NCBI GenBank assembly: GCA_965214045.1
Contig: OZ243935.1
Coordinates: 2,316,994 to 2,380,993, forward strand
DNA: 64,000 nt
Source: Candidatus Poribacteria bacterium
GTDB lineage: Bacteria; Poribacteria; WGA-4E; WGA-3G
Direction of reading: 5' to 3'
Shown here: one piece after another, positions 12,444 through 37,844 of the stretch
Layout: every line of letters starts with the position of its first letter
Position numbering within the stretch: the first letter of the stretch is position 1
Translations under genes and position numbers: made by a program
The notes under the pieces: generated by a model
Database searches by the model: none
What the model was told of the DNA's origin: nothing
What the model saw: the letters and a program-made list of their open reading frames with translations, nothing else

Positions 12444-12612
12444 TTTACAATATCCTCCGAGCGTGGTTCCATTATATTTCGTGGCGCAAAATGTTAGGTA
12501 AGAGAGATTGATTCTATTATACTGCTTTTTGCGGTTTAAAACAAATTTCGCACATTTTCGCGGTGCTACAAGCATCTTGACAAGGCGCGTAAAAGAAGAT
12601 ATAATAATCAGT

Positions 12613-13641
12613 ACTTAACGTGAGTTTGAAAAAAGTTTAGCGTTTAGAAAATCACGGGTAAATCGCTGACAGTTTGAAGTTCATCGAGGTTCAACGCGGG
12701 TTTCTTCTCCAAGAGCTGATAGGCGATCAAAGCAGAGACGACATTGACTTGGAAGTTAACGAAACTTCTATGTCGACTGTGTTCCACTTGTGTCTGCGTT
12801 TTCAGTTCCTTGATCACCGATTCAATAAGCGTCCGTTTTTTTAGCAGCACCTCATCGGAAATCGACACCCGCAGCGGCTTCATGTTTTTACGGACTTTAT
12901 AGACCAAGTTGATACCTTGTGCATGTAGAAACTCCCGGAGGTCTTTGGAGATATATCCCTTATCGCCATAGAGAGTGCCGAACATCTGCTCGGACGACAA
13001 CTTCGAGAGGGGCTGACGGTCATCGGTATTCCCCGGGGACACCTCAAAGCCTAAGAGATCCCCTTTCTCGTTGATAATCAGATGGAGTTTAAAACCGTAG
13101 AACCACCCCATTGAGGTCTTCGAGCGTCGGGCGTGTGCTGCGAAGACGCGATGCGAGGAAATCCGCTTATTGTCGCAAACCCGCAAACGTGTGGAATCCA
13201 CGAAGGAGATACCGCTACATTCACCCAAGTGAGCATGAAGATAAAGCGTCAAAAGCGTCAACACCTCTTTCTTGAGTTCGACGAACCGAGAATAACTCAG
13301 TAGATGTGGAAACTCGTTGACCCAGTAGACACGGACATGTTTTACGTAAAAGCGTTTGAACGTCCGATACCCACTTTGATGGAACGCAACAAGGATCGTC
13401 ATCACTTCGCTCGGATGCAGTTGCCGAGGGCGTCCGCGTGTTTCCAGGGGTGTCTTCTCTGGTAGACAATGCGGGCCCTGCCATTTTTCGTAAGCAAGAA
13501 AAAAGTCGTCCATTTTACAGAAAAGTGTTATGATATTCATCAGAGAACTCCTTTTGGTTATAGAGATGTGATAACTCCATTATACCAAAGGGGTTCTCTT
13601 TATACAAAAACTTTCAATTATTTATCAAACTCACGTTAAAA
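12613..13641 (-). mobile_element. IS982-family insertion sequence
   Basis: A DDE transposase ORF flanked by imperfect terminal inverted repeats TTAACGTGAGTTTGA (12615-12629 and, as reverse complement, 13625-13639). The size of about 1.03 kb is typical for IS982. Confidence 0.75.
12644..13540 (-). CDS. IS982-family DDE transposase
   Basis: 298 aa. Recognised by eye as IS982-family from sequence similarity (...FVDSTRLRVCDNKRISSHRVF...GFKLHLIINEKGDLL...YGDKGYIS...). Confidence 0.75.
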   Translation of the reverse strand: MNIITLFCKMDDFFLAYEKWQGPHCLPEKTPLETRGRPRQLHPSEVMTILVAFHQSGYRTFKRFYVKHVRVYWVNEFPHLLSYSRFVELKKEVLTLLTLYLHAHLGECSGISFVDSTRLRVCDNKRISSHRVFAAHARRSKTSMGWFYGFKLHLIINEKGDLLGFEVSPGNTDDRQPLSKLSSEQMFGTLYGDKGYISKDLREFLHAQGINLVYKVRKNMKPLRVSISDEVLLKKRTLIESVIKELKTQTQVEHSRHRSFVNFQVNVVSALIAYQLLEKKPALNLDELQTVSDLPVIF

Positions 13642-13654
13642 TTGTAGTTTTCAT

Positions 13655-15761
13655 ATGGAGAATCAAACCCCACATATTTATGCCCAAGACAAAAACAGAA
13701 ATGCGGATTTCACCAAGTGGGGACTCCCTGATGGTGCTATTGCTCGGTTAGGACGAGGAGGTATACAAGTGCTATCGATGTCGCCAAATGGGGAATATTT
13801 GGCGGTCGGAACCTTGATCGGGGTGTGGGTGTATGAGTCCTCAACACTTGCACCCATCGCGTTGTGGGACACAGAGCGCGGGCTAATTTCTACTCTCGAT
13901 TTTTCTCCCCACGGCAAGTGGCTTGCTACGGGTAACACAGATGGCAGTATCAAGATATGGGATATTCATCGCGGCATATGTATTTCCAGAATGCAACGTC
14001 CACAAGAAAAAAATGGCAAGTGGCGTGACGGAAATTCACAGATCGCCTTTTCATCTGATGGTCACTACATCGCTTCTTCGGCTAAGTTAACAGGGAACAT
14101 TTATTTATGGCACGCAGAAACAGGTAAACGAATCTCCATGTTTTCTGACCCTCCCGAGGTGAGGTTAAAATGGCGTGCCCCCCCCTCGGCCTCTCTGCTT
14201 TTCCAATGATGGATGCCTCTTGGCGTGTGCTAGCTCTGTTGATGCAGACGGAACTGCCGATTTCATTTCGGTGTGGCATGTGGAAACAGGCGAGCGAGTC
14301 GCTTCTCTTAAGGGAGGGACGACGCTTTTGCGTTCCCTTACTTTTTCACCTTGCGGGCAGCACATCGCCGCCGCGGATGTATCTGGCACCGTACAAGAGT
14401 GGAACATCCATACAGGTAAACAGCAAGTGATAGCATCATACGAAACTGCTGAAACGGTGAAAGTAGCATCACACACTGAGACATCTAGTATAACCTCCTA
14501 TTACCGAATAATTCCCGACTACTCCGCTTCCGGCACCCTACTTGCTGCTGCTCGACATGACTCCACCCTTACTGTCTGGGATGTGAAACGTGGTGAGAAA
14601 CGTAATGTCTTTGAACATCATGAACCTATCACACACATTTACTTTTCAAACCAGAAACATAGGAATGGAGAGAATTCCTCATCTGTCGTGGCTTTTGCGA
14701 GCGCAGAGGAAATCAATGTTTGGACTTTAGATAACCCATACACGGGGACTCCTATTTCCCGATACGTTTTATTTCCGGATGTTATAGCTTTTTCGCCTGA
14801 TGGTCGGACACTTGTAAGTGCAGGTTTTGCTCCTGCTACCTCTTGGGATATTGTTACAAGACAACCGCAGCGGCTGATGTCTCGTGCCGAAACAAAAGGT
14901 CGTTCACAAAAGAGCATCCGTTCTATCCATATCTCCTCGGCTGGGAAAATATATGCGTTAGGAGTTTTCCAGAATATCCTTACCGTTTGGGATCTTGAAA
15001 CGAATCAAACAATCGCTACCCTTACTGAACACAATGAATATGTGCTGACAGCTGCCTTCGCACCAACAGGGGAACAATGGGCAAGTGGTAGCCACAACGG
15101 AGAATTGTATGTATGGAAAAAACAAGGAACACGCAAAAAACTACTCGGACACACCGATGCGATTCAGACACTCGCCTTTTCGTCGGATGAAAAGTGCTTA
15201 TTGAGTGCCTCAAGCGACGGAACAGTGCGCCTCTGGCATGTTGCCTCAGGTGAAGAGATCGCCTCGCTTTCCTTAGCCCGATTAGATACAAAGCATTATC
15301 TTGACACTTTTCCCAGCAAACTGATCAGCACACAACAGCGTAGAAGCTGCGAGAGAGAGAATACCTCCCCACATTCCGAAATGAAGGCAATAGCTTTTTC
15401 ACCTTCTGGTAACGTCATTGCCGGTGGGATATTTGGCGAAATACGGTTCTGGAATGCTGATACCTATGAAACTTGCTTGGCAATACGTTTACCTCAAGGG
15501 TGTCAACGCCCGTATGCCTTAGATTTTTCTCGGTGTGGACGCTACCTCGCTTCTGGCTCTTGGTGGCAAAACACAGAGAAAGTTTCCATCCGATTATGGG
15601 AGGTTGCCACGGGTGAGAATATCGTCACTTTTTGGGGACACCCTACAGATGTCCAAGATCTTGCTTTTTCCCCGGATGGTTCGCTGTTGGCAAGTGGGAG
15701 TCTTGATGGAACTGTACTCCTATGGGATCTGACACCTTATCTACAAAATGAAACGCCGTGA
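13655..15761 (+). pseudogene. WD40-repeat beta-propeller protein interrupted by a +1 frameshift in a C8 homopolymer
   Basis: ORFs 13655-14209 and 14175-15761 both encode WD40 repeats (FSPDG/FSNDG...WD). They overlap in different frames exactly at the CCCCCCCC run 14178-14185. One protein of about 700 aa is restored by a 1-nt indel. Confidence 0.6.
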
Positions 15762-17016
15762 TGCTATCGCTGCGGGCATCGTGCATCTCCTTGAAAACCC
15801 ATTGCGTTCCGGGTTGTCTATCCTCGGCATCCTCATCGGAATCGCCAGTGTCCTCTGCATGATTGCCATCAGCGATGGCGCGAAACGTCTCATCACCCAA
15901 GACCTTGAAAAATTGGGGGGATCAAACCAAGTTCAATTCCAGATACTCACACACATTCGCAAACGCGGGCGGTTCCTCCGGTACACCACCGAACGATATA
16001 CGCTTAAGGATGCTTATGCCATTGAGGCGGAATGCCCAGATGTCCTATATGTCTTACCGAAAAATGAAAGATATCGACCCCACCTTGTTACCAGCCGATA
16101 CAACAGTCGACCCAGTCCGCATCTCGAAGGTGTTACAGCAAACTATGCAATCGGCATGCACTGGGAGATTCAAGCAGGCAGATTCCTCTCCAAAACCGAT
16201 ATTGAAAACGCAACACAAGTCTGTGTCTTGGGGGCAAACATCGCCCGTGAGTTGTTTGGTGCATCATCAGCGATCGGGCAAGAAGTGAAGGTGCGGGCTT
16301 CTTGGCAGCTCCCTTCCGTAAGACTACGTGTTGTTGGAGTCATGAAAACAAAAGGGAGAAGTCTAAGTTCTTGGCGTTCTTTAGATGATACCATTTGTGT
16401 GCCGTTGACGACGCGCAAACAACGGATTTTTGGCACTCGCTACGTTGATACGCTTGTTATCTTTTTTCAAAAGGATGCCGATGTTTATAGGGTCATTGAT
16501 TTGGCAAAAGATGTCCTGCGTAAAAGACACCGAGGGAAAGATGACTTTATCCGCTATTGGATACCGAGAATGAACATTCAGCAGCTGGATCACATTGAAA
16601 AAGTTATAAAAATCGCTTTAGGGGGCATCGCTGGTTTCTCGCTGTTTGTGAGTGGTATCGGCATCATGAATATCTGTCTCGTCTCTGTCGGTGAAAAGAC
16701 ACGAGAGATAGGTTTGCGGAAGTCGGTCGGCGCGAAGCTCACTGACATCTTCTACCAATTCCTAACCGAATCCATTTGTCTTTGTTTCTGTGGCGGGATA
16801 CTCGGCGTTGCCGGTGGCTGGTTGGCAGCACCCGGTGCCGCACAGTTGGCTGTGCGGGTTCAGCCAATTGTTGAGGACTGGCCGGTTGCCTTCTCTCTAC
16901 CTTGGGGACTGACCGCTCTTATTTTTTCAACCTTCATGGGCATCATTTTCGGGGTCTATCCTGCGATACGTGCAGCACGGCTTTCACCGATGGATGCACT
17001 CCGCACCGAAACATAA
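15748..17016 (+). CDS. ABC transporter permease, FtsX/MacB-like family
   Basis: N-terminal transmembrane segment, large periplasmic domain, then three C-terminal transmembrane segments, as in MacB/LolCE/FtsX permeases. Overlaps the WD40 gene stop by 14 nt. Confidence 0.65.
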   Translation: MKRRDAIAAGIVHLLENPLRSGLSILGILIGIASVLCMIAISDGAKRLITQDLEKLGGSNQVQFQILTHIRKRGRFLRYTTERYTLKDAYAIEAECPDVLYVLPKNERYRPHLVTSRYNSRPSPHLEGVTANYAIGMHWEIQAGRFLSKTDIENATQVCVLGANIARELFGASSAIGQEVKVRASWQLPSVRLRVVGVMKTKGRSLSSWRSLDDTICVPLTTRKQRIFGTRYVDTLVIFFQKDADVYRVIDLAKDVLRKRHRGKDDFIRYWIPRMNIQQLDHIEKVIKIALGGIAGFSLFVSGIGIMNICLVSVGEKTREIGLRKSVGAKLTDIFYQFLTESICLCFCGGILGVAGGWLAAPGAAQLAVRVQPIVEDWPVAFSLPWGLTALIFSTFMGIIFGVYPAIRAARLSPMDALRTET

Positions 17017-17074
17017 GGAGGTCGTCTTGAAAAGTTCCTATTTCCTTTTAATCTTGAAACGTTTAGAAAAAATG

Positions 17075-17100
17075 CCGATTTGGAAATCGACACTTTTTTT
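17075..17100 (+). terminator. rho-independent terminator-like hairpin with T7 tract
   Basis: ccgattt gg aaatcg stem followed by ttttttt, about 60 bp after the permease stop. Confidence 0.4.
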
Positions 17101-17362
17101 CTGCCGTGGATAATCTTGATCACTCTTCTTCTCGTTGCTTTCTGGATTCGGATTCAGGGCGTTCCAAATATTCCTGAGGGTCAATTTACGGGAAACGATC
17201 CATATCTCCACTATTGGCAAGCACAGATCGTGTCTGAACAGGGTAAGTTGCAGTTCGGTATTTTCTATAAGAACCTACTGAACCCTATAAGACCCTCATA
17301 AAATATAAAGTTATTTAGTTTTTTACTTGACAACCCTTTTACTTTTCTGATAGACTCTATGT

Positions 17363-18034
17363 ATGAATAAAAGATTTGTGAAGATTGGTGAAGCCGCTAA
17401 ACTTCTTGGTGTGTCCGTTCAGGCACTTCGGAATTGGGAAACGGAAGGTAAGATACTGCCTTCTCACCGCACCCCTGGCGGTCAACGTATGTATGATTTA
17501 GCAGAACTTCTCGGTGTCAATGATTTGACCGCTCCTACAATTGCTTATGCCCGCGTCTCGAGTTCGGATCAAAAGGAAGATTTAGAACGTCAGCAGGCCG
17601 TCCTTGAAGCGTTTTGCAATAAGAAGGGGTGGCAGACTGAAATCATAAGAGACCTCGGCAGTGGCATGAACTACAACAAGAAAGGACTCTCACGCCTCCT
17701 TGAGCTCCTGGTGAATGGTCAAATGTCTCGTTTAGTTATCACGCACAAAGACAGACTCGTTCGTTTTGGTGCGGAGATTGTCTTTCGTATCTGCGAACTC
17801 AAAGGTATAGAAGTTGTGATTATCAACAAAAGTGAGCCCCCGTCTTTTGAGGAAGAACTCACGAGCGATGTCATGGAAATCCTGACTGTGTTTTGTGCGA
17901 AACTCTATGGACGGCGTTCTCATAAATCCAAGAAAATGGCGCGAGAGATAGAGAAGATCGTCTCCGAAGAAAAAGAACATTTGGAACTTAACCTTGACAC
18001 GCCGCACACAAAAGATAGAACTCAACCCGAATAA
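17363..18034 (+). CDS. tnpA: IS607-type transposase TnpA (MerR-like HTH plus serine recombinase/resolvase catalytic domain)
   Basis: N-terminal HTH (IGEAAKLLGVSVQALRNWE) followed by a resolvase catalytic block YARVSSSDQKEDLERQ. Confidence 0.8.
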   Translation: MNKRFVKIGEAAKLLGVSVQALRNWETEGKILPSHRTPGGQRMYDLAELLGVNDLTAPTIAYARVSSSDQKEDLERQQAVLEAFCNKKGWQTEIIRDLGSGMNYNKKGLSRLLELLVNGQMSRLVITHKDRLVRFGAEIVFRICELKGIEVVIINKSEPPSFEEELTSDVMEILTVFCAKLYGRRSHKSKKMAREIEKIVSEEKEHLELNLDTPHTKDRTQPE

Positions 18035-19091
18035 CAAAGAAGCCACGCTTCTGTCTCAACACGCCGGCTATGCCCGTGTTGCGTTCAACTTCGCTTTATC
18101 GTCGTTGAAAGTCGGTTTAGATACCGACGACTGGCGAAGTCATGTTGAGATCAAGCGTGAGTTTAACGCCGTCAAATACGATAAGTTTGACTGGTGTAAA
18201 GCCCTCTCACAGAATGCGTCGAAGACTGCGATACACAATCTTGGAGACGCTGTTACACGCTGGAAAAAAGGACAAAACAAGTTCCCGGTCTATAAGCACC
18301 GATCTGGTAAATGCTCTTACCAAGCAGACAATGGCGAAGGAACTGTTGAAGTTCATAAAAAGCGTATCAACCTTCCAAAGATAGGATGGATACGCATGCG
18401 TGAGGAACTGCGTTATACTGGTGAAATCACAAAAGTCGTTGTGTCGAAACATAACGACAAATGGTTTGTGTCTATCACCGTTAGACGCCTCGATAGCAGC
18501 AACTATAAGCACCAACCGTCTCTGTTTGACCGACAAGAAAAGCAACCGATAGGGATAGACGTAGGTATCAATACACTCGCTACATGCTCTAATGGGGAGA
18601 CTTACGACAATCCACGACCTCTCAAGCGATATGAGCGAAAGTTAGCGCGTGCCAATCGTGCTTTGTCACGTAAGGTTAAGTTTTCAAAGAACTGGTATAA
18701 GCAGAAAAAACGCCTCTCTGCTGTCCACGCACGTATTGGTAATCTCCGTGAGGACGCTCACCACCAAGCCACGATACGGATTGTTCGCAAAGCACGTGCT
18801 ATCGGTATTGAGACGCTGAAGGTTACCCACATGCTCAAGAATCGGAAACTTGCCAAAGCATTATCCGACTCAGCACTTGGAGGCTTTCTAACCAAACTCA
18901 AGTATAAAGCAGAGAGACGCGGCATACCGATAACCGAAGCCTCCCAATTCTTTGCGAGTTCCAAGACCTGTAGCAACTGCGGACACAAGAAAACAGACGT
19001 GATGCTCTTTGATAGAATCTATCATTGCTCCGAATGTGGTTTTGAATGTGATAGAGACCTGAATGCGGCTATCAATCTGTGTCCTGCGTAG
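17994..19091 (+). CDS. tnpB: TnpB (IS605/IS607 OrfB family; RuvC-like RNA-guided nuclease family with C-terminal zinc finger)
   Basis: 365 aa. Has the RuvC-I motif IGIDVGIN and a C-terminal CSNCG...CSECG zinc ribbon. Overlaps tnpA by 41 nt. Confidence 0.85.
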   Translation: MTRRTQKIELNPNNKEATLLSQHAGYARVAFNFALSSLKVGLDTDDWRSHVEIKREFNAVKYDKFDWCKALSQNASKTAIHNLGDAVTRWKKGQNKFPVYKHRSGKCSYQADNGEGTVEVHKKRINLPKIGWIRMREELRYTGEITKVVVSKHNDKWFVSITVRRLDSSNYKHQPSLFDRQEKQPIGIDVGINTLATCSNGETYDNPRPLKRYERKLARANRALSRKVKFSKNWYKQKKRLSAVHARIGNLREDAHHQATIRIVRKARAIGIETLKVTHMLKNRKLAKALSDSALGGFLTKLKYKAERRGIPITEASQFFASSKTCSNCGHKKTDVMLFDRIYHCSECGFECDRDLNAAINLCPA

Positions 19092-19300
19092 AAAAATGGC
19101 AGTTTCAATCGCGAAGGTTCCGATTGAAACGAAACCTTTTGTTTTGCTTTTGAAAACAAAAGTGCCATTTTTCTAATGACCTTGAACCGTCGCCACGAGT
19201 TGCGAGGAGACGTAAAACGCCTGTGGAGTCCGTGTCAGACCTCGGTGAGAGGCAGTGGACGTTGAAGCAGGAAGTCAGGCACACATCGAAAGAACACTGT
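19092..19300 (+). ncRNA. putative TnpB-associated guide RNA (omega/reRNA) scaffold region
   Basis: Inference only. It lies directly 3' of tnpB and is highly structured, with nested palindromes at 19093-19180. The segment aaacgcctgtggagtccgtgtcagacctc is conserved with the 3' flank of the tnpB at 24951-26045 (aaacgcttgtggagtttgtgtaagacctc). Confidence 0.3.
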
Positions 19301-19414
19301 AGCGTTTTATAGGTTCTTGAGGTGTTGTTAAGTCCTACACAACGGCAGAAAGTGAAACCTAACTTAACACTCGATATTTTTCTTTCAACGCACTGCATTT
19401 CTTGACATATTGCT

Positions 19415-20812
19415 ATGCTTTTGACAATATCAACCACATATTCTCCCGCAACGGATCTCGGTTATCTGTTGCATAAACACCCATCTCGAATTCAATCCTT
19501 TGAACTCTCATTTGGGCAAGCGCATGTCTTTTATCCGGAGGCGGATACCGAGAGATGCACAGCAGCATTGCTTCTTGATGTTGATTCGATTGGACTTATC
19601 CGCCGCCCTCGTGGGCAATTTGCGCAAAATTTCGCGTTAGCGCAGTATGTCAGTGATCGTCCTTACGTTGCTTCGTCGTTTTTGAGCGTAGCAATTGCAC
19701 GGGTGTTTGGTAGCGCGTTGTCGGGCAGGTGCAAAGAACGTCCAGAGCTCGCGGAGACTGCGATTCCTTTAAGTGCGAAGTTAGCCATTCTACCATGTCG
19801 CGGCGGAGAGAAATTGTTGCGGCGACTTTTCGAGCCACTCGGTTATACCGTAACAACAGAGCACCAGGCGTTGGACACACAATTCCCGCAGTGGGGGCAG
19901 AGTCGTTATTTTACGGTGACAATTGAAAATATCTGTCGTTTGAGTGAGCTTCTCACGCATCTTTACATTCTGATTCCTGTGCTTGACGACGAGAAACACT
20001 ATTGGGTTGACGAGGCGGAAATCGAAAAGCTGTCAAAGCGTGGGAGTGATTGGCTCGCTGCGCATCCAGAACAAGAATCGATTGTTCGTCGCTACCTGAA
20101 ACATCAGCGGCAGCTTACCTCTCAAGCACTTGCCCAATTGTGCGAAAAGGACAATCAAGAGACTAACGAGGCAACTCAAGCAGAAGAAGAACAGGTTGAG
20201 GAACGGATCGGTCTGAACGAAATCCGTTTAGTTGCGGTCACCGAAATCCTCAAACAGTGTGGGGCAAAACGCGTTCTTGATTTGGGATGTGGTGAAGGAA
20301 AACTTCTTCGTAAGTTGTTGGCTGAGAGGCAATTTGAAGAGATCGTCGGAATGGACGTTTCACATCGTGCCCTGAAAACCGCGCAAAAACGACTTCAGCA
20401 TGACCGCTTACCGGAAAATCAGAAAGAGCGGATTCGTCTGTTTCAGGGGTCGCTCGGGTACCGAGATAAACGCTTAGATGGATACGATGCAGCTGCCGTT
20501 GTAGAGGTAATTGAACACTTAGATTTACCACGACTGGCGGTTTTTGAGCGCGTGCTTTTCGAGTATGCCTGTCCTCGGACGGTTGTGTTGACGACACCGA
20601 ACATAGAATACAATCTAAAGTTTGAGAACCTACAGGCTGGATATTTCCGGCATAAAGACCACCGTTTTGAGTGGACGCGGGACGAATTTCAGTCTTGGGC
20701 GGGAAAGGTTGCCGAACGCTTCGGTTATACCGTTGTGTTTCATCCGATCGGTCCAACTGTTGAAGATATTGGACCACCAACCCAGATGGCAGTCTTTACC
20801 CGAAAAGCTTGA
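19415..20812 (+). CDS. hen1: bacterial Hen1 RNA 3'-terminal ribose 2'-O-methyltransferase
   Basis: 465 aa, the size of bacterial Hen1. The N-terminal domain MLLTISTTYSPATDLGYLLHKHP...AALLLDVD is conserved. The C-terminal SAM methyltransferase domain contains VLDLGCGEGKLLRKLL. Confidence 0.75.
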   Translation: MLLTISTTYSPATDLGYLLHKHPSRIQSFELSFGQAHVFYPEADTERCTAALLLDVDSIGLIRRPRGQFAQNFALAQYVSDRPYVASSFLSVAIARVFGSALSGRCKERPELAETAIPLSAKLAILPCRGGEKLLRRLFEPLGYTVTTEHQALDTQFPQWGQSRYFTVTIENICRLSELLTHLYILIPVLDDEKHYWVDEAEIEKLSKRGSDWLAAHPEQESIVRRYLKHQRQLTSQALAQLCEKDNQETNEATQAEEEQVEERIGLNEIRLVAVTEILKQCGAKRVLDLGCGEGKLLRKLLAERQFEEIVGMDVSHRALKTAQKRLQHDRLPENQKERIRLFQGSLGYRDKRLDGYDAAAVVEVIEHLDLPRLAVFERVLFEYACPRTVVLTTPNIEYNLKFENLQAGYFRHKDHRFEWTRDEFQSWAGKVAERFGYTVVFHPIGPTVEDIGPPTQMAVFTRKA

Positions 20813-20910
20813 TGAATGGGATGGACGCAATTCTCTTGTAAATGCGGTTTCCCACAGATTGGTGCGGTGGTATCCGATACCGAACGGATAAAAAGGCGCG
20901 CAGCCTCAAA

Positions 20911-21008
20911 CGTAGTGGGAGGATTTTGCTTGGGTATTTCTTCAGGTCTACGCAAAGACACTTGGAAGCACAAACCTACTTCACCGAACCGCAAGGAAAA
21001 TTAGGAAA
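20911..21008 (+). repeat. long-form leader repeat ending in the core motif followed by ATG (short ORF only)
   Basis: gtagtgggaggattttgcttgggtattt...acgcaaagacac...caccgaaccgcaaggaaaattaggaaa followed by ATG at 21009. Only a 14-codon ORF follows. Confidence 0.7.
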
Positions 21009-21043
21009 ATGTCTGTTATTCTTCTCGAAGTCCAAAGCCGCAA

Positions 21044-21129
21044 GCCCGTAATGAAATGGAGGGCGACTCTACGGGAAGGCAGGTAAATGTATAAACCCAC
21101 TTCATCGAACCGCAAGGAAAATTAGAAAC
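21044..21129 (+). promoter_or_regulatory. extended leader repeat (GCCCGTAATGAAATGGAGGGCG...ATCGAACCGCAAGGAAAATTAGAAAC) abutting the pnkp start
   Basis: Homologous to the leaders at 30042-30131 and 34672-34757. ATG at 21130. Confidence 0.7.
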
Positions 21130-23697
21130 ATGAGAATTCCTGAACCTTCACTTATACTCCTCATTGGACCTTCGGGTTCAGGTAAATCTACCTTTGCACG
21201 TAAGCATTTTAAACCAACCGAGATTCTTTCGTCGGATTTCTGCCGAGGACTCGTTTCAGACGATGAGACCGATCAGACGGTAACGAATGATGCTTTTGAA
21301 GTGCTACGCTTCATCGCAGCCAAACGGCTCGCTGCCGGGAAATTGACGGTTATTGATGCCACGAATGTCCAGGTTGAAGCGCGAAAACCTTTGTTGGCAC
21401 TGGCGCGCGAATACCACTATTTAACCGTTGCTATTGTGTTTGATCTTCCCACAAAACTTTGTCAAGAAAGAAACGAGACGCGTCCCGACAGAAATTTGAA
21501 ACCTCATGTCATCCGTCAACAGAGCCAACAACTCCGTCGCTCGTTGCGCACTCTCAAACGCGAAGGTTTTCGGCAATTTGTCTATGTAATGTCCACACCC
21601 GAAGTTATTGAAGCCACCCATATAGAGCGGCAGCCATTGTGGACGAATCGCACAGACGAGCAAGGACCGTTTGATATTATTGGGGATATTCACGGCTGTT
21701 TTGATGAGCTTGTTGAATTGCTCGAAGAACTCGGTTACAAGGTCTCAATACAACCGGACGGCGACACCGTTGTTGAACCGCCACAAGGCAGGAAAGCGGT
21801 TTTCGTGGGCGATTTTGTTGACCGAGGTCCTAAAGTCCCTGAGGTGTTACGCTTGGTCATGGGAATGCAAAAAACCGACACGGCTCTCTGTGTCCCCGGG
21901 AATCATGACGTAAAACTGATTCGGGTACTTCGCGGCAAAAATGTGAATCCGACGCACGGATTAGCAGAATCCCTTTCTCAATTGGAGAGAGAATCAGTCG
22001 AATTTAAGGCACAAATCGTGGAATTCCTTGATGGTTTGGTGAGTCACTGTGTCCTTGACAACGGAAAGTTGGTCGTCGCGCATGCAGGAATGAAGGATGA
22101 ATTGCAAGGCAGGGCATCGGGGCGCGTGCGAGAATTCGCACTCTATGGCGAAACCACCGGAGAAACCGATGAGTTCGGCTTACCTATTCGACGCAATTGG
22201 GCTGACGAATATCGCGGGAACGCGATGGTTGTCTACGGACACACGCCGGTTGTCGAGCCGCAATGGGTAAATCGGACAATCAACATTGATACCGGATGTG
22301 TTTTCGGCGGTAAACTGACAGCGTTGCGATACCCTGAAAAAGAACTCGTGTCTGTTCCAGCACACCGGACGTATTATGAACCGGTTAAACCGCTTCTTGT
22401 AGGAGCGGACTCCGATTCCCGACAATCTTCTGTCGAAATGCAGGGGTCTGATGGCATTCTCGACATCAATGATGTACTTGGAAGGCGTGTCATCAGCACA
22501 CGATTACATCATAATGTGACAATCCGTGAAGAGAATACAATAACCGCACTTGAGGGAATGAGTCGTTTCGCTATAAACCCAAAATGGCTTATTTATCTTC
22601 CACCCACGATGTCACCAACAGAAACCACAAGCAATCCGGGGCTGCTTGAACATCCGGCGGAAGGGTTCGCTTATTACCGCAAACAAGACGTATCCACAGT
22701 CATTTGGGAAGAAAAACACATGGGATCCCGTGCTGTCGTTGTCGTTTGCCGAGATCCAGAAACCGCGAAAAGACGATTTGGTGTCCCAGGCGACACGCTT
22801 GGCATCTGTTACACACGGACCGGTAGACGTTTCTTTAACGATGCCACGATTGAAGCCGAACTGTTGGAACAAGTGAAAACCGCGATGGATACAGTCGGCT
22901 ATTGGGAGACCCTCAATACAGATTGGATCTGTTTTGACTGCGAGTTGATGCCTTGGTCAGTTAAGGCTCAGGAATTGTTACAGCAGCAATATGCACCCGT
23001 CGGAGCATCGGCTCATGTCGCGTTAGGAGAAACGATTGCCTCCCTGAAGATAGCCGCCGAGCGCGGCGTTGACGTGGATTGTATATTGGATGACTATCGT
23101 CAGCGCGCAGAGGCAGTGACCGCATACGTTAGGGCATATCAGCAATATTGTTGGGACGTCCAGTCTATTGCGGACTTGAGACTGGCTCCGTTCCATCTAC
23201 TTGCGACGGAAGGTACGGTGTATTTCGACAAAGACCATCTGTGGCACATGCGAATGCTTACGAAACTCTGTGAGAATTCTGAGGATAACCTGTTGTTCGC
23301 CACTCACTACGAGAGGGTTGATGTGACGCATGAGGCAAGCCAAACTGAAGCGATCTGTCGGTGGGAAGAACTCACCGAGCAGGGCAGCGAAGGGACAGTC
23401 ATCAAACCCCTGGATTTTATCGTTCAAGGCAAGCGAGGATTGGTACAACCCGCTATAAAGTGTCGAGGTCGTGAATACCTGCGGATAATCTATGGACCTG
23501 AATATACAGTGCCTCGAAACTTAGAACGTCTCCGTTCTCGCGGACTTTCTCACAAACGTTCTCTCGCACTTCGAGAGTTTGCGTTAGGCGTTGAGGCACT
23601 TGAACGCTTCGTTCACCGTGAACCCTTGCCCCGTGTTCATGAGTGCGTTTTCGGAATTCTGGCACTCGAAAGTGAGGCAGTTGATCCGAGACTTTAA
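21130..23697 (+). CDS. pnkp: polynucleotide kinase-phosphatase-ligase Pnkp (RNA repair)
   Basis: 855 aa in three modules. The P-loop kinase has GPSGSGKST. The calcineurin-like phosphoesterase has GDIHGC, GDFVDRGP and GNHD. The C-terminal nucleotidyltransferase has a KHMGS motif-I-like block. Confidence 0.8.
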   Translation: MRIPEPSLILLIGPSGSGKSTFARKHFKPTEILSSDFCRGLVSDDETDQTVTNDAFEVLRFIAAKRLAAGKLTVIDATNVQVEARKPLLALAREYHYLTVAIVFDLPTKLCQERNETRPDRNLKPHVIRQQSQQLRRSLRTLKREGFRQFVYVMSTPEVIEATHIERQPLWTNRTDEQGPFDIIGDIHGCFDELVELLEELGYKVSIQPDGDTVVEPPQGRKAVFVGDFVDRGPKVPEVLRLVMGMQKTDTALCVPGNHDVKLIRVLRGKNVNPTHGLAESLSQLERESVEFKAQIVEFLDGLVSHCVLDNGKLVVAHAGMKDELQGRASGRVREFALYGETTGETDEFGLPIRRNWADEYRGNAMVVYGHTPVVEPQWVNRTINIDTGCVFGGKLTALRYPEKELVSVPAHRTYYEPVKPLLVGADSDSRQSSVEMQGSDGILDINDVLGRRVISTRLHHNVTIREENTITALEGMSRFAINPKWLIYLPPTMSPTETTSNPGLLEHPAEGFAYYRKQDVSTVIWEEKHMGSRAVVVVCRDPETAKRRFGVPGDTLGICYTRTGRRFFNDATIEAELLEQVKTAMDTVGYWETLNTDWICFDCELMPWSVKAQELLQQQYAPVGASAHVALGETIASLKIAAERGVDVDCILDDYRQRAEAVTAYVRAYQQYCWDVQSIADLRLAPFHLLATEGTVYFDKDHLWHMRMLTKLCENSEDNLLFATHYERVDVTHEASQTEAICRWEELTEQGSEGTVIKPLDFIVQGKRGLVQPAIKCRGREYLRIIYGPEYTVPRNLERLRSRGLSHKRSLALREFALGVEALERFVHREPLPRVHECVFGILALESEAVDPRL

Positions 23698-23827
23698 AGG
23701 TCCGTTTTGAAACGATGACAGGATTTAATGCTAAAAAACTTCGCATCCAATTTTTTTTGACGAAAATCTCCGCGAATTACAACAGATACTACAAAATAGG
23801 AACTTTACTGCAACAGCGCATAAAAAA

Positions 23828-24739
23828 ATGAAAAATCGATTAATATACTACCTATTAATCTTCTATCTTGGTTTAGCGGTGGGTATAGGCTGTACGACGC
23901 AAGATACCCCTAATCCCCTATCACCTGAAGATAACACCGAAGTTGTTCTTAAAGATCATCGACTCACTGAAAATGAAACGTGGAACCCCGAAAAAACGTA
24001 TATTGTACATGGTACAGTGGAGATTCCACAGGAGATAACCCTCAACATACCACCCGGCACGACTGTTAAATTTGGACAGGATGCCCTTCTCACAGTGAGA
24101 GGTATTCTAAAGATCGGAACACCTTTAGATCAAGATGTGGTCACTCGACTCGTGCATCTCACATCGAACAATGCCGAATCTGCCTCCGGTGATTGGAACG
24201 GAATCCTCTTCGACCATACACACGATTTAGAGAGTTTTGTCAGAGGGACGGTTATAGAGCATGCCACAGTCGCCCTTGACATCAAAACGACATCCCCAAC
24301 TGTTGCAGAATGCACCCTTCGTGAAAATGAAACCGCCATCACTCTGGACGGAAGCGATGCTATCATCCGACGCAATGATATTCTTGACAATCATGTCGGG
24401 ATTAATACTATCGGACGCCAAACGCGACCAAAGATTGAGAGCAACAATATCACCAAAAACGAGACTGGAATCTTCTGTGAAAATGTCCAATCTATTATTC
24501 AAAACAACAACCTGAACGCGAACATTTTCGCACTCCGTTTGAATGTAAAATTTGACTTGGTGGTAACCCACAATTGGTGGGGAAATTCAGATGCTACCGA
24601 GATAGCGAATGTTATTATAGATGCCGCTGATCCGGTCCTGACGACTAAACAGATAGGCATCGTCTATTATGAGCCGTTCGCCGATGCGCGGATCGCCGAG
24701 GCAGGCTTTCCATATCCGACACTTCTCATCGATCTATAG
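23828..24739 (+). CDS. lipoprotein with parallel beta-helix repeats
   Basis: Signal peptide with a lipobox (LAVGIGC). Repeated N-x-I/L-xxN blocks (NNITKNETGIF, NNNLNANIF) of right-handed beta-helix type. Confidence 0.5.
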   Translation: MKNRLIYYLLIFYLGLAVGIGCTTQDTPNPLSPEDNTEVVLKDHRLTENETWNPEKTYIVHGTVEIPQEITLNIPPGTTVKFGQDALLTVRGILKIGTPLDQDVVTRLVHLTSNNAESASGDWNGILFDHTHDLESFVRGTVIEHATVALDIKTTSPTVAECTLRENETAITLDGSDAIIRRNDILDNHVGINTIGRQTRPKIESNNITKNETGIFCENVQSIIQNNNLNANIFALRLNVKFDLVVTHNWWGNSDATEIANVIIDAADPVLTTKQIGIVYYEPFADARIAEAGFPYPTLLIDL

Positions 24740-24832
24740 CAGGAGTGGATGATGGTGAAAATGAAGAATCTTACTTAACAATCCCAAGTCTTTAGACTTG
24801 GGTCAAACCCAGTAATTTATTTTCTTTTTTTC

Positions 24833-24862
24833 TTGACAACAGAAGTGCTGATATGGTATAAT
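24833..24862 (+). promoter_or_regulatory. sigma70-type promoter (TTGACA-18 bp-TATAAT) driving tnpB
   Basis: TTGACA at 24833-24838 and TATAAT at 24857-24862. Confidence 0.5.
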
Positions 24863-24950
24863 AGTATTACCTTATCAGTGGGAGTGCTATCAACACTCCC
24901 ACACCTTTGATAGAGGGATAAGGAAACTTCACAGATAAGGTGATACTCCA

Positions 24951-26045
24951 ATGGCACATAAATCCCATAAGATAGCACTTCGGGTTAATTCTGAACAAGA
25001 CGCGTGGTTTCATAGCCAATGCGGTTACGCTCGGTTTGCCTGTAATAATGCCCTGGCACATTTCAAAGCGGGTTTGGAATCAGGCACGTTCCATTCGGGA
25101 GTTGATTTAAACAATCACTTCAATACAGCCAAAAAAGCGTATGACTGGACGAAAGCACAAGACCAGCGTGCTGCGTTATATGCTATCCGAAACCTAACAG
25201 CAGGCATAAACCGCTGGAAAGACAAGATGAGTGGGTTTCCAAAGTTCAAGAAGCGTGGGCATAGGTTATCCTACACCACAGACGAACAGGCAGTAAAGGT
25301 AGACGGGAAGCGTATCAAGTTGCCCAAAATCGGTTGGGTCAAAATGTTTCAAGAGTTGCGTTTTGAGGGCGAGATTCTCCGTGTTACTATATCCAAGACG
25401 GCGCATAGGTGGTTTGTATCTATCACCGTTGACACAGGAACACCCAATGTTCTACGTGATACGCGTGGACTCCCTGTAGTCGGCATAGACGTAGGTATCA
25501 ACTCACTTGCTACACTGGATACGGGTAAACACTACGATAATCCAAGACCTTTGAAACGCTATGAAAGGAAGTTGGCACGTGAGCAACGCAAGTTAAGTCG
25601 TAAAGTATTTCTATCCAATAACTACTATAAGCAAAAAGAGAGAGTTGCTAAACTACACTATAAGATTGCTTGTATCCGAAATGACGCACACCACCAAGCG
25701 ACCACAGAGATCGTCAATATGGAAACCAGTGCGATTGGCATAGAAACACTCAAAGTTACGAACATGCTCAAGAATAGGAAACTTGCCAAAGCCTTATCGG
25801 ATAGTGCGTTAGGGGGTTTCCTTTCTAAACTTAAGTCCAAAGCAGAAGTGCTTGGAATACCTGTTGTAGAAGCCCCACAATTCTTTGCGTCCAGCAAAAC
25901 GTGCAGCAGTTGTGGGTATGTCAAAGACGAATTGTCGTTATCAGAGCGTGTGTTTCATTGTGACTGGTGCAAGACCAAAATAGATAGAGACCAGAACGCT
26001 GCGATAAATCTTAAGAAACTCGCCGTGGGCTACACGGAGAGTTAA
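24951..26045 (+). CDS. tnpB: TnpB (IS605 OrfB family), second copy
   Basis: 364 aa. Clearly homologous to the tnpB at 17994 (IGIDVGINSLAT, LKVTNMLKNRKLAKALSDSALGGF, C-terminal CSSCG...CDWC zinc ribbon). Confidence 0.85.
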   Translation: MAHKSHKIALRVNSEQDAWFHSQCGYARFACNNALAHFKAGLESGTFHSGVDLNNHFNTAKKAYDWTKAQDQRAALYAIRNLTAGINRWKDKMSGFPKFKKRGHRLSYTTDEQAVKVDGKRIKLPKIGWVKMFQELRFEGEILRVTISKTAHRWFVSITVDTGTPNVLRDTRGLPVVGIDVGINSLATLDTGKHYDNPRPLKRYERKLAREQRKLSRKVFLSNNYYKQKERVAKLHYKIACIRNDAHHQATTEIVNMETSAIGIETLKVTNMLKNRKLAKALSDSALGGFLSKLKSKAEVLGIPVVEAPQFFASSKTCSSCGYVKDELSLSERVFHCDWCKTKIDRDQNAAINLKKLAVGYTES

Positions 26046-26089
26046 AACGCTTGTGGAGTTTGTGTAAGACCTCCACAAGGAGGCTACAA

Positions 26090-27334
26090 ATGACGAAGCA
26101 AGAATCCCACGACTTTAGGCGTGGGAGTATCAAAAGTACAATTCTGAACGTCTCACAAAACCACCATGTCCGCGGCGGTTCTGATAGATACTTTTTTACC
26201 CTCGCCGAGTTGTTACAAAAACACGGACATCGGGTCGTGCCCTTCACAGCCGCAAACCCTAATAACGAACCCTCCGAATGGGAACACTATTTCCCACGCG
26301 GTGCCGACTTCGAGCATCCCGGAGCAGGAGACCTACTGCGCTTTTTATATTCACACGATGCTGTTAAATCAATTCGACGGTTGTTGAAGGACACAGATAT
26401 CGACCTCGCGCATTTCCATATCTACTACGGTAAACTCACTGCTTCAATCTTGGAAGTCCTAAAAAAAGACGGAATTCCGCTCATCCAGACGTTACACGAG
26501 TACAAGTTAACCTGCCCAGTTTATAGCCATCTCTCAAACGATGAAATTTGCGAGGCGTGTGAAGGTAAACACTTTTGGCGCGCGCTCCCAAAACGCTGCA
26601 ACAGGGGTTCACTTGCGCGGACTGCGTTGAGCGTCACGGAGTCTTATGTATCACGCATCCTCGGTGCTGTTAAGAAATTCGACCATTTCATTTCCGTCTC
26701 TCATTTCCTTCGGAAAAAGATGATCTCACACGGCATCCCAGAAGACCAAATCTCAACCGTTCATAACTTTGTCGATGTCTCTGACATCACACCGAATTTC
26801 GACGTTGGGGATTATGTCCTCTACTTCGGACGGGTGCATCGGAGCAAAGGGATTTTGACATTGATAGAAGCGGCGGCACCGCTCAAGCAATGCCCGATCT
26901 ACATCGTCGGTGATGGTGAAGCAATGCCCGAAATTCAGCGGATCGTTGAAGAGAACGAATGTGATCATATTCACCTCCTCGGTTTTAAGCAGGGCGATGC
27001 GCTCCGGGAACTCATTCTGAATAGCATCTGCACAGTCTTGCCATCAGAGTGGTATGAGAACTGTCCGATGTCTGTCTTGGAATCCTATGCTTACGGCAAA
27101 CCGGTCATTGGTGCTGATATAGGTGGGATTCCAGAGCTCATCGTAGATGGCGTTGATGGATTTCTCGTTCCATCGGGTGAGCGAGAAGCACTTCGAGAGC
27201 GTCTCCTATGGATTTTTGAACATAGAAACGAGGCTGTCGAGATGGGACGCATGGGTCGTCAAAAGATGGAGACAGCGTTTAATGCCGACATTCATTATGA
27301 AAGGATTATGAATGTCTACCAGCAATTTTTGTAG
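26090..27334 (+). CDS. glycosyltransferase family 4 (GT-B, RfaG-like)
   Basis: Start at ATG 26090, preceded by an AGGAGG Shine-Dalgarno. C-terminal GT4 donor-binding region (...GFKQGDALRELILNSICTVLPSEWYENCPMSVLESYAYGKPVIGADIGGIPELI...). Confidence 0.75.
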   Translation: MTKQESHDFRRGSIKSTILNVSQNHHVRGGSDRYFFTLAELLQKHGHRVVPFTAANPNNEPSEWEHYFPRGADFEHPGAGDLLRFLYSHDAVKSIRRLLKDTDIDLAHFHIYYGKLTASILEVLKKDGIPLIQTLHEYKLTCPVYSHLSNDEICEACEGKHFWRALPKRCNRGSLARTALSVTESYVSRILGAVKKFDHFISVSHFLRKKMISHGIPEDQISTVHNFVDVSDITPNFDVGDYVLYFGRVHRSKGILTLIEAAAPLKQCPIYIVGDGEAMPEIQRIVEENECDHIHLLGFKQGDALRELILNSICTVLPSEWYENCPMSVLESYAYGKPVIGADIGGIPELIVDGVDGFLVPSGEREALRERLLWIFEHRNEAVEMGRMGRQKMETAFNADIHYERIMNVYQQFL

Positions 27335-29992: not shown

Positions 29993-30041
29993 AGGAAAAT
30001 TAGGCATGCAAGAACCTCTTAAAGGTCGGACAAAGCACGCA

Positions 30042-30131
30042 GCCCGTAATGAAATGGAGGGCGGATCTACGGAAAGGAACGTCAAATTTGAAACCGACCT
30101 GACCGAACCGCAAGATAAAATTAAAAAAGCA
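30042..30131 (+). promoter_or_regulatory. extended leader repeat with the core motif, upstream of the epimerase gene
   Basis: 88 of 94 nt identical to the 34672-34757 copy. Ends ...ccgcaagataaaattaaaaaagca, just before a TTG. Confidence 0.7.
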
Positions 30132-31112
30132 TTGGTCACAGGCGGTGCGGGCTTTATGGGCGCACACGTCGTTAATGAACTTCTCAACCAAGGTAACACA
30201 GACGTTGTTGCCCTTGATGACTTGAGCGGCGGTTTCCGTGAGAACCTGAACCCTGCCGCAACCTTTGTTGAAGGAAGCATCCTCGATGTTTCGCTAATAA
30301 ATCAACTCTGTAAGGAGTATCAATTCGATTATATCTATCATCTTGCCGCGTATGCAGCGGAGGGTCTCAGTCACTTCATCAAACGATTTAACTACCAGAA
30401 CAACCTCATCGGGAGCGTAAACCTCATCAATGCGGCAGTAAACTACAATGTCAAACGGTTTGTGTTCACCTCTTCCATTGCTGTTTACGGTGCGAATCAA
30501 CTTCCAATGCACGAAGCACTTACCCCAATGCCCGAAGATTCCTACGGTATCGCCAAATACGCTGTTGAACAGGAACTTCTTGTCGCAAAACGACTCTTTG
30601 ATCTGGATTATACCATTTTCCGTCCCCACAACGTCTACGGTGAACTCCAGAATATCGGTGACAAGTATCGAAACGTCATTGGTATTTTTATGAATAATAT
30701 TATGCAAGGGGAACCATTAGTTATCTTTGGAGACGGTGAGCAGACGCGCGCCTTCACACATATCGCCGATGTCGCTCCGCATATTGCACACTCTGTGGAT
30801 GTACCTGAAGCATCAGGAGAGGTTTTTAACGTCGGTTCGGATAAGCATGTTTCTGTCAACGAATTGGCAGACTTGGTAATGACGGCGATGGGGAAGGAAG
30901 TCCGTGTTATCAATGTGCGTGCGAGGGAAGAGGTTAAACATGCCTATTGCACACACGAAAAGTTCCACGAGGTCTTTGGAAAGACCTCGGAGGTCACGCT
31001 TCCGGAGGGTTTGGAAAGAATGGCAACATGGACGCAGTCCGTTGGACCACGAGCTTCCACCTTGTTTACTGACATCGAAATTCGCAAAAATCTACCCGAA
31101 AGCTGGAAATAG
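30132..31112 (+). CDS. NAD-dependent epimerase/dehydratase (extended SDR; UDP-sugar epimerase-like)
   Basis: Has the Rossmann motif VTGGAGFMG, a YxxxK block (YGIAKY) and a long C-terminal domain. The start is uncertain. The TTG at 30132 gives a typical M-VTGGAGF N-terminus. Upstream in-frame ATGs lie inside the leader repeat and are unlikely to be used. Confidence 0.7.
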   Translation: MVTGGAGFMGAHVVNELLNQGNTDVVALDDLSGGFRENLNPAATFVEGSILDVSLINQLCKEYQFDYIYHLAAYAAEGLSHFIKRFNYQNNLIGSVNLINAAVNYNVKRFVFTSSIAVYGANQLPMHEALTPMPEDSYGIAKYAVEQELLVAKRLFDLDYTIFRPHNVYGELQNIGDKYRNVIGIFMNNIMQGEPLVIFGDGEQTRAFTHIADVAPHIAHSVDVPEASGEVFNVGSDKHVSVNELADLVMTAMGKEVRVINVRAREEVKHAYCTHEKFHEVFGKTSEVTLPEGLERMATWTQSVGPRASTLFTDIEIRKNLPESWK

Positions 31113-37813: not shown

Positions 37814-37844
37814 ATAGTTGTTCATAGAGAGGCATGTTATTCTT

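Follow-up and report, generated by a model that had tools for sequence, protein, structure and literature searches.

A resident, very probably canonical Pnkp-Hen1 RNA repair operon beside a strain-specific IS607 element in Candidatus Poribacteria

RNA repair systems of the hen1-pnkp type are already known. The closest to the locus analyzed here, which lies in a 64-kb stretch of a Candidatus Poribacteria genome (the window), is the Pnkp-Hen1 system of C. thermocellum (PDB 4DRF, 4E6N, 3TY5, 4J6O, 4GP6, 4DQZ). It shares with the window pair both proteins, their domain order and the order of the genes, and the catalytic motifs are all identical. The alignments span the kinase, the phosphatase, the ligase and both Hen1 domains, with E-values from 1e-66 to 1e-165. 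On the other hand, the window pair comes from another phylum, Poribacteria, and its promoter is displaced in the window strain. The methyltransferase of Anabaena variabilis Hen1 (3JWH, 3JWJ) aligns over residues 257-463, with identical SAM and metal motifs. Two cyanobacterial loci (L032 and L044) differ from the window in having a gene of ~260 aa between hen1 and pnkp, which in L032 is Thg1-like. The Pnkp1-Rnl-Hen1 heterohexamer of Capnocytophaga gingivalis (PMC4411300; PDB 4XRP, 4XRU) shares the logic of heal, 2'-O-methylate and seal, but there the ligase, Rnl, is a protein of its own and hen1 lies far from pnkp1-rnl, whereas the Pnkp of the window is of the fused, classical kind. The C. gingivalis Hen1 and Rnl resemble the window proteins weakly (E = 4e-8 and 6e-6).

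[quoted passage not shown] Both match their NCBIfam equivalog models over the full length, Hen1 with 722.9 bits to TIGR04074 (cutoff 340) and Pnkp with 1401.7 bits to TIGR04075 (cutoff 750). The original prediction had named just these two proteins, with their lengths and the KHMGS motif of Pnkp, and the open reading frames, equivalog matches, domains and motifs all agree with it. Its assignment of the function class, that of the known RNA repair pair, is likewise fully supported by the equivalog matches and by the intact catalytic motifs. Every domain expected of such a pair is found: Hen1_L, methyltransferase, AAA_33 kinase, Metallophos and PNKP_ligase.

For Hen1, residues 1-242 are the bacterial-specific Hen1_L domain (PF12623, 385.7 bits in Pfam), which is the N-terminal, Pnkp-ligase-activating domain, and the C-terminal domain is a SAM/Mn methyltransferase of the predicted 2'-O-methyltransferase class. 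Over its whole length the protein aligns with PDB 4dqz (N-domain, residues 1-228) and 3jwh/3jwg (methyltransferase). Its motifs LDLGCGEG (288-295), EVIEH (364-368) and RHKDHRFEW (412-420) hold the SAM motif and the E..EH and H..H metal motifs, with the same residues as in the Anabaena and C. thermocellum structures (3jwh, 3jwg), and these are invariant or nearly so among 45 diverse Hen1 proteins that we compared.

For Pnkp, the Pfam domains are AAA_33 (kinase) at residues 8-139, Metallophos at 180-374 and PNKP_ligase at 472-849. The alignment to PDB 4gp6, 4j6o and 4drf/3ty5 places on identical residues of the C. thermocellum crystal sequences the kinase-side motifs GPSGSGKST (the P-loop, 13-21) and SSDFCRG (34-40), the phosphatase-side motifs GDIHG (185-189), GDFVDRG (227-233), GNHD (257-260), AHAG (317-320), GHTP (370-373) and IDTG (386-389), and KHMGS (529-533), which carries the ligase lysine. 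The residues essential in the C. thermocellum enzyme are listed in PMC3675462; by motif comparison, the window Pnkp retains the P-loop and general-base Asp, the phosphatase metal and phosphate ligands, and the ligase lysine. Loss of that lysine or of the Hen1 SAM-binding residues would count against the identity of the pair, and both are intact.

The order of the two genes had been taken as reversed and unusual in the original prediction, and this is wrong. We surveyed one genome per species, with loci carrying both genes from more than 12 phyla, and hen1 precedes pnkp, co-oriented, in all 75 of the two-gene loci; the reverse order does not occur once.

What is particular to the window is the spacing. 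The hen1-pnkp spacer (20813-21129) was put at about 315 bp with two leader repeats, and indeed it measures 317 bp and both leader cores can be located, compared with a short 5-100 bp in most other lineages. It is made of two lineage-specific leader units on the + strand. Unit 1 (core 20989-21007) has an orphan ATG at its end (21010), after which comes a 24-codon open reading frame, and unit 2 (core 21110-21128) stops 1 nt short of the pnkp ATG. In three relatives (L001, L002 and L083) the spacer measures ~197 bp and has only one unit, and alignment with L001 and L002 and blastn against L083 identify ~121 bp (roughly 20945-21065) as extra in the window. The leader is a Poribacteria-specific 5' unit, of which the window strain has one extra copy between hen1 and pnkp, and pnkp probably retains a leader and a ribosome-binding signal of its own. 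As an observation in its own right, and a more intriguing one than the repair operon, the window has 23 copies of the leader core, where 0.28 would be expected by chance.

Is the pair mobile, as the original prediction proposed? The arrangement hen1, pnkp, a NosD-like gene and a glycosyltransferase gene is syntenic in 6 of the 7 Poribacteria relatives (L001, L002, L003, L004, L005 and L083), with no mobile element beside the pair there, so the chromosomal position of hen1-pnkp is conserved in the lineage and the proposal of mobility fails. The NosD-like beta-helix protein (PF05048; 23828-24739, + strand) is encoded downstream of pnkp in the same six relatives, and we found no functional tie between it and the RNA repair pair. 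The window differs from the relatives by its insertions. An IS607 tnpA and tnpB do lie directly upstream of the pair on the same strand, as the prediction said; a solo tnpB element (24740-26128, + strand; tnpB at 24951-26045, identified with TnpB models) lies between the NosD-like and glycosyltransferase genes. Both are absent in all seven relatives, the solo element by direct comparison with L001, L002 and L083. No tnpA is found in the 82 loci scanned or among the called genes of L083, the closest strain, in which the hen1/pnkp DNA is 97-99% identical and the Hen1 protein (P0001) 99% identical, and which has no IS607. A third tnpB is at 61259-62368; neither it nor the solo tnpB had been noted before. 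The solo TnpB is 53% identical in amino acids to that of IS607, and the other TnpBs of the window range over 29-53%.

IS607 is the right part of a larger strain-specific segment of 6.7 kb (12618-19344), bounded by IS elements and absent in all relatives, whose breakpoints, by blastn against L001, L002 and L083, are 12617/12618 and 19344/19345. By Pfam, the segment contains an IS982-like transposase (12644-13540, - strand) on the left, then a split WD40 gene (13655-14209 and 14175-15761) and a MacB/FtsX permease gene (15748-17016). The IS607 element itself (17250-19344, + strand, left end approximate) has tnpA at 17363-18034 (NF033518, 205.1 bits, cutoff 110), encoding a serine recombinase with a MerR-type HTH at residues 7-44 and a Resolvase domain at 60-195. 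Overlapping it, and downstream on the same strand, is tnpB at 17994-19091 (NF040570, 252.7 bits, cutoff 100), of the class that encodes RuvC-type RNA-guided nucleases, with OrfB_IS605 and Cas12f1-like_TNB domains and scores under the "exception" cutoffs of NF038280 and NF038281. A sub-terminal motif, CTATAAGAACCT, occurs in two copies at 17265-17296 and inverted at 19304-19318.

The 3' non-coding region of the element (19092-19344, + strand) is a putative reRNA region, with a fold z-score of -2.6 and a RAGATH-18-like core at 19220-19273. The match to RAGATH-18 (RF03064) is sub-threshold, at 28.5 bits with E = 0.0018 in 341 nt and a gathering score of 44.9, and it includes the outer helix and the conserved core of the model. 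The core plus ~64 nt of 3' flank predicts an end near 19337, and the observed boundary is 19344. The described likeness is ISFba1 (PMC11061315), an IS607 with a RAGATH-18-derived reRNA. There too a serine-recombinase TnpA with a MerR-type HTH stands beside a TnpB of ~365 aa, and the whole reRNA region, putative in the window, follows tnpB and stops at the edge of the element; in contrast, the window match is sub-threshold, its internal segment is 25 nt instead of 42, and its 5' flank is ~80 nt longer. Next to the right end of IS607, 70 nt of the native hen1 5' region remain (19345-19414), and homology to L001, L002 and L083 starts at 19345. With the reRNA architecture of that paper, the guide would occupy the first ~20 nt of this remnant.

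The 6.7-kb segment separates hen1 from a conserved, near-consensus promoter in the window strain. The predicted sigma-70-type promoter (TTGACA-N17-TATAAT, 12577-12605, + strand) points toward hen1, now 6.8 kb away, and it is the only 12/12 consensus match in a scan of 12400-24000. In all seven relatives (L001-L006 and L083), even where a different gene lies upstream, hen1 follows the promoter block at a distance of 9-251 nt. From 18215 to hen1, a consensus scan of the + strand turns up no sigma-70-like site that reaches 9/12, and a scan for terminator-like sites finds none between tnpB and hen1. Ahead of tnpA there is a promoter-like site of IS607 (17327-17356, + strand, 10/12 with a TG). We infer that read-through transcription of hen1 would now, most likely, start at the tnpA promoter of the co-oriented IS607 and continue across tnpB and the putative reRNA into hen1. 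The 70 nt of native sequence or the right end of IS607 could also harbor a promoter of a type beyond the consensus scan.

It is important to weigh these observations against other explanations. That hen1-pnkp is an accessory mobile cassette in reversed order, carried or mobilized by the neighboring IS607/TnpB, would fit a co-oriented tnpA/tnpB directly upstream of hen1, and also a second tnpB 1.25 kb downstream of pnkp, because of which two TnpB genes bracket the pair and the NosD-like gene. But hen1-pnkp is outside IS607, because the right end of the element is upstream of hen1, and the two TnpBs, at just 53% identity, have ends that bound separate insertions; together with a universal gene order and a shared place and downstream neighbors in relatives that have neither element, this leaves the cassette with hardly any credibility. 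IS607 is a strain-specific newcomer beside a resident operon, and it does not mobilize the pair. Both junctions of the segment are at IS ends, and the left flank of IS607 (17080-17301) is an ORF fragment apparently unrelated to the hen1 locus, so the arrangement could be an IS-mediated rearrangement instead of a simple insertion, or it could be an assembly mis-join at multi-copy IS sequences, with the operon really beside its promoter. The window, with at least 4 IS-type genes in 64 kb, would offer occasion for such an error, yet the IS982-like and IS607 sequences have no high-identity repeat elsewhere in it, and two separate errors would be needed that jointly restore collinearity at both sides. 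Moreover, this locus has two independent strain-specific differences besides, an additional leader unit and the solo tnpB, as would fit a truly IS-active strain. We consider a mis-join improbable.

Taking the displacement as real, could the operon be silent and decaying after the loss of its promoter, or could pnkp alone be expressed, giving healing without sealing or methylation? The conserved promoter has moved 6.8 kb, the ~1.2 kb upstream of hen1 have no sigma-70-like site, and a leader of its own, present twice in this strain, precedes pnkp. Against this, neither open reading frame is truncated and no catalytic motif is damaged, the near identity to L083 extends over the DNA of both genes and the Hen1 protein, and the co-oriented IS607 offers a promoter-like site with no predicted terminator before hen1. 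It may be that the displacement happened so recently that decay would not yet be visible; even so, we think there is only a small chance that the operon is silent or reduced to pnkp. A role for the archease gene at 526-945 is very improbable, whether in cooperation with Hen1-Pnkp or as the mark of a second, RtcB-type RNA ligation pathway in the region. The gene is a true family member, as the original prediction had it (PF01951, 135.4 bits, full length), and archease is the known RtcB cofactor (PMC3973293). The prediction was also right that the window shows no rtcB: neither rtcB nor rtcA is found among its ORFs of at least 250 aa, of which RecD2, SASA, MR_MLE, FG-GAP and epimerase were assigned through orthologues in relatives and the others scanned with Pfam. 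The archease is on the - strand (the + strand translation contains stops), opposite to the pair and 18.5 kb from it, between two unrelated genes, for DUF6784 and an HpcH aldolase, and the activator of the Pnkp ligase is Hen1, not archease (PMC3675462). It is a stand-alone gene, unlinked to hen1-pnkp.

Thus, we regard it as very probable that the pair is resident in this Candidatus Poribacteria genome and forms a canonical Pnkp-Hen1 RNA repair operon. No ribotoxin gene is found in the 64-kb window. By comparison with the described systems, the predicted activity of the pair would be the formation of a Pnkp2-Hen12 complex and the healing, methylation and sealing of ribotoxin-cleaved RNA. The Pnkp kinase would phosphorylate the RNA 5' end, and the C-terminal domain of Hen1 would methylate the 2'-OH of the 3'-terminal nucleotide. 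The N-terminal domain of Hen1 would activate the Pnkp ligase, adenylylated on the KHMGS lysine, and the break would be sealed. The 2'-O-methyl mark left at the junction would then shield the repaired RNA against renewed cutting.

The ORFs predicted as hen1 and pnkp are both present on the plus strand, hen1 at 19415-20812 (465 aa) and pnkp at 21130-23697 (855 aa), and their identities are confirmed by domain and equivalog matches. Hen1 matches Hen1_L (386 bits) and SAM methyltransferase domains, and scores 723 bits against the NCBIfam equivalog TIGR04074 (cutoff 340). Pnkp carries AAA_33, Metallophos and PNKP_ligase domains, and scores 1402 bits against TIGR04075 (cutoff 750). Loss of catalytic residues was looked for in both proteins, and all of them are kept. 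All the Pnkp catalytic motifs are identical in an alignment to those of the crystallised C. thermocellum domains: the kinase P-loop GPSGSGKST (13-21) and SSDFCRG (34-40); the phosphatase motifs GDIHG (185-189), GDFVDRG (227-233), GNHD (257-260), AHAG (317-320), GHTP (370-373) and IDTG (386-389); and the ligase motif KHMGS (529-533). The residues essential in CthPnkp fall within these motifs (PMC3675462). The Hen1 SAM motif LDLGCGEG (288-295), and the EVIEH and RHKDHRFEW motifs, are the same as in the Anabaena and C. thermocellum structures, and are invariant or nearly so in an alignment of 45 diverse Hen1 sequences. An exact-sequence look-up found no identical database record for either the Hen1 or the TnpA of the window.

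The original prediction regarded hen1 followed by pnkp as the reverse of the described operon order, and this turns out to be an error. We collected diverse Hen1 representatives, including the 45 aligned, and then scanned one genome per species, which resulted in 80 loci from Poribacteria, Acidobacteriota, Gemmatimonadota, Chloroflexota, Planctomycetota, Myxococcota, Verrucomicrobiota, Cyanobacteria, Deinococcales, Armatimonadota, Latescibacterota, Bacteroidota and others. The pnkp gene was located by tblastn with the window's Pnkp, within 6 kb of hen1. All 75 loci with a pnkp match in that range have hen1 upstream of a co-oriented pnkp, and none has the order pnkp-hen1. Seven loci have no pnkp match by tblastn: in three (L018, L041 and L064) the sequence ends 7-85 bp downstream of hen1, in two (L023 and L068) there are 1.4 and 3.0 kb of downstream sequence, and only in L029 and L074 is pnkp absent despite 6 kb of room. 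Thus hen1-pnkp is the invariant cassette order across phyla.

About one third of the loci in other phyla have a gap of 0.7-2.8 kb between hen1 and pnkp, occupied by co-oriented variable genes (L009, L010, L012, L022, L025, L028, L032, L034, L036, L038, L042, L044-L047, L051, L054, L055, L057, L062, L066, L076 and L079). Their products include Thg1-like (tRNA 5'-end repair), HEAT-repeat, ApeA-type HEPN, AbiEii-like AAA ATPase, PhyH dioxygenase and Mrr_cat+TPR proteins, and several without a Pfam match. In those phyla, RNA-related and defence-related cargo seems to accumulate in the spacer, as at a hotspot.

Also predicted was an archease at 526-945. It is a real gene (PF01951, 135 bits), with its strand corrected to minus, a stand-alone one flanked by a DUF6784 gene and by an aldolase gene. 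As had been noted, rtcB is missing from the window; neither RtcB nor RtcA appears among its ORFs of at least 250 aa, by Pfam scans or as orthologues in relatives. The window has no tRNAs, a whole-window Rfam scan at gathering thresholds reports nothing, and PADLOC finds no defence or toxin neighbour. There is no evidence within the window of a link between the archease and Hen1/Pnkp.

Is the pair mobile, as its position next to a TnpB-bearing insertion sequence had suggested? The adjacency itself is real: an IS607 element with tnpA at 17363-18034 (NF033518, 205 bits) and tnpB at 17994-19091 lies directly upstream of hen1 on the same strand. The order hen1, pnkp, NosD-like gene, glycosyltransferase gene is found in five Poribacteria relatives, namely the closest strain L083 (99% Hen1 identity to the window), L001 (97%), L002 (92%), L003 (84%) and L004 (80%). 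These five also have the divergent upstream gene in common, and L005 retains the downstream part of the neighbourhood. The organism is a Candidatus Poribacteria bacterium: over 100 Hen1 clusters share 80% identity or more with the window Hen1, and the named ones are from Poribacteria. An IS607 tnpA is present in none of the 82 scanned hen1 loci (L001-L082), nor among the called genes of L083, and blastn breakpoints show that both 12618-19344 and 24740-26128 of the window are missing in L001, L002 and L083. Because the pair is syntenic in relatives without IS607, it is resident and essentially core rather than accessory; by this comparison of sequences, IS607 is the strain-specific arrival. What we have here is the canonical, already-known system in its normal order and in its normal place. 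Its structure and biochemistry are well characterised, and the Poribacteria orthologues already have names at NCBI. The lesson is that adjacency to a TnpB-bearing insertion sequence does not amount to mobility unless relatives are checked. We also rejected the two TnpBs flanking the pair as the ends of a composite transposon, as their identity is 53% and each bounds an insertion of its own.

The relatives also suggest what the arrival may have done to the operon. The only perfect TTGACA-N17-TATAAT match in 12400-24000 lies on the plus strand at 12577-12605, directed toward hen1. The same block is found upstream of hen1 in all seven relatives, with a shared core AAAAGAAG(A/G)TATAAT in six of them, and it is kept in L005 and L006 although the upstream gene differs there. 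This is strong comparative evidence that 12577-12605 is the hen1 promoter. The distance from its -10 box to the hen1 ATG varies in the relatives: 9 nt (L006), 62 nt (L005), 106 nt (L002 and L003), 207 nt (L001), 248 nt (L004) and 251 nt (L083). This stretch, different in length in each relative (9-251 nt), holds in L083 a 28-nt perfect palindrome, GGATTTAGTCTAT..ATAGACTAAATCC, at 9837-9864 of that locus.

In the window, promoter and hen1 are 6.8 kb apart, with a 6.7 kb segment between them that holds an IS982-like transposase, a WD40 gene, a MacB/FtsX permease and IS607. The transposase (12644-13540, minus strand) starts right at the left junction. The WD40-repeat gene beside it is present as two overlapping ORFs (13655-14209 and 14175-15761), which suggests a frameshift. 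Only 70 nt of native 5' sequence are left before hen1. From 18215 to hen1 the plus strand has no sigma-70-like site matching at least 9/12, and between tnpB and hen1 there is no terminator-like site. A good promoter-like site, TTGACA-18-TAGACT with TG, lies just upstream of tnpA at 17327-17356, and hen1 would now be transcribed by read-through from IS607.

The 6.7 kb segment has insertion sequence ends at both its edges, and the left flank of IS607 is an unrelated ORF fragment; for these reasons the arrangement may stem from IS-mediated rearrangement or, conceivably, from a mis-joined assembly, and not from a single simple insertion. The fragment is a 73-aa ORF (17080-17301) with an N-terminal transmembrane helix that stops at the left end of IS607. 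It has no Pfam match, and we dropped its reading as a truncated oligosaccharyltransferase as unsupported. It resembles what would remain of the 5' end of a gene after interruption by IS607, in which case the two flanks of the element come from different loci. The detachment of an operon from its promoter by IS607 and IS982 is tidy but ordinary genome dynamics.

IS607 also carries a candidate guide RNA. A sub-terminal motif, CTATAAGAACCT, has two copies in 17265-17296 and its reverse complement at 19304-19318, so that the element extends from about 17250 to 19344. Its 3' non-coding region has a stable fold (z = -2.6), and contains at 19220-19273 a RAGATH-18-like core of 28.5 bits (E = 0.0018), which is below the gathering score of 44.9, with the conserved outer helix and the GGAGU...UGAAGCAGGAA core matched almost perfectly. 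For characterised IS607 TnpB, the reRNA lies entirely downstream of tnpB, and in it a 5' flank leads into the RAGATH-18 motif, which a 64-nt 3' flank links to the guide (PMC11061315). Under that architecture the scaffold in the window would end at 19273 + 64 = 19337, at most 7 nt from the observed boundary, and by analogy the guide would take up 19345-19364, where the conserved 5' region of hen1 has its first 20 nt. The locus offers a clean natural example of a conserved operon separated from its promoter by an IS607 insertion, with a candidate reRNA now right in front of it.

For the other two tnpB genes, permissive Rfam scans of the 3' flank found no RAGATH-18 match, but in the solo copy (tnpB at 24951-26045) the motif is visible by eye. 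The right end of the solo element (24740-26131) abuts codon 2 of the downstream glycosyltransferase gene, whose native ATG, as seen in L083, is ATC in the window; a replacement start codon could come from the in-frame ATG at 26090, within the element, and would extend the N-terminus by 13 residues. The third TnpB (61259-62368) is divergent, 29-34% identical to the other two and without an adjacent tnpA, and a CCCACG.CTTTAGGCGTGGG hairpin closes the 3' flank of its gene, as it does that of the solo element.

Elsewhere, a 29-nt GAAAGCC heptamer repeat (GAAAGCCGAAAGCCGAAAGCCGAAAGCCA) is identical at 31205-31233 and 51185-51213, 20 kb apart, with a diverged copy at 36253-36281. Two ORFs, 2261-3592 (443 aa) and 36134-37813 (559 aa), have no Pfam match, the latter inside a polysaccharide/sulfotransferase cluster.

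The hen1-pnkp spacer has 317 bp and does contain the two leader repeat copies first noticed there. Most other phyla have a gap of 5-100 bp, unlike this leader-bearing spacer. We count 23 copies of the leader core CCGCAAGGWAAWWTTARAA in the window, where 0.28 are expected, and the module precedes at least a dozen unrelated genes within 64 kb (copies at about 3880-4004, 5330-5452, 7930-8057, 20890-21014, 21011-21135, 30009-30133, 32585-32709, 34639-34763, 37785-37909, 38911-39035, 42219-42343, 44452-44576 and 63276-63400). At some genes the core is tandemly duplicated 21 nt apart (5406/5427 and 37863/37884), and at 3652-3739, in an intergenic region upstream of a leader unit, two copies of a 44-bp sequence (TTGTGAAGGAAGTGTCGAGGACACACGGTCTTAATAGTGCCAAA) form a perfect tandem duplication. 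The core is absent from the 76 non-Poribacteria loci and from Rfam, and literature searches found no described Poribacteria leader or RNA motif.

Aligned copies show a unit of about 120 nt in which a 5' stem module and, where present, an insert come before a TCTACGGAAAGGCAC box, with the invariant core CCGCAAGG(A/T)AA..TTAAAAA last. The core contains an AAGGA Shine-Dalgarno-like element, and in 8 of 19 copies precisely 1 nt separates its end from the ATG. The 5' module is a short hairpin with a conserved loop. Its hand-proposed 3-bp stem shows modest covariation, with 9 both-side compensatory changes vs. 3.3 in shuffles, and RNAalifold on 16 copies reports no global consensus structure. A promoter function for the leader was rejected, since the spacer has no sigma-70-like site matching at least 9/12. 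As read from these features, pnkp probably has its own translation-initiation leader, and hence would not be tightly coupled to hen1.

Four relatives (L001, L002, L003 and L083) have a single unit in a spacer of about 150-200 bp, and the window spacer is longer by about 121 bp, one additional unit. L004, another species, has two cores in its spacer, 118 nt apart. The two units of the window spacer share only about 69% identity, so they are not a recent tandem duplication, and the extra one looks like a copy brought in from another place. With it comes an orphan ATG, at 21010, which has an ORF of 24 codons after it. One can go further and take the leader, as a copyable cis-element, to represent a new class of leader that is portable and acts in translation or regulation, next to an IS607 reRNA transcript that reads into hen1. 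That reading requires such a transcript, with the hen1 5' UTR as its guide, and we consider it unlikely as a whole. If it were true, mobile non-coding elements would have rewired this operon twice, and the locus would be a natural example of the process. The leader, uncharacterised and lineage-specific, is the more unusual feature here.
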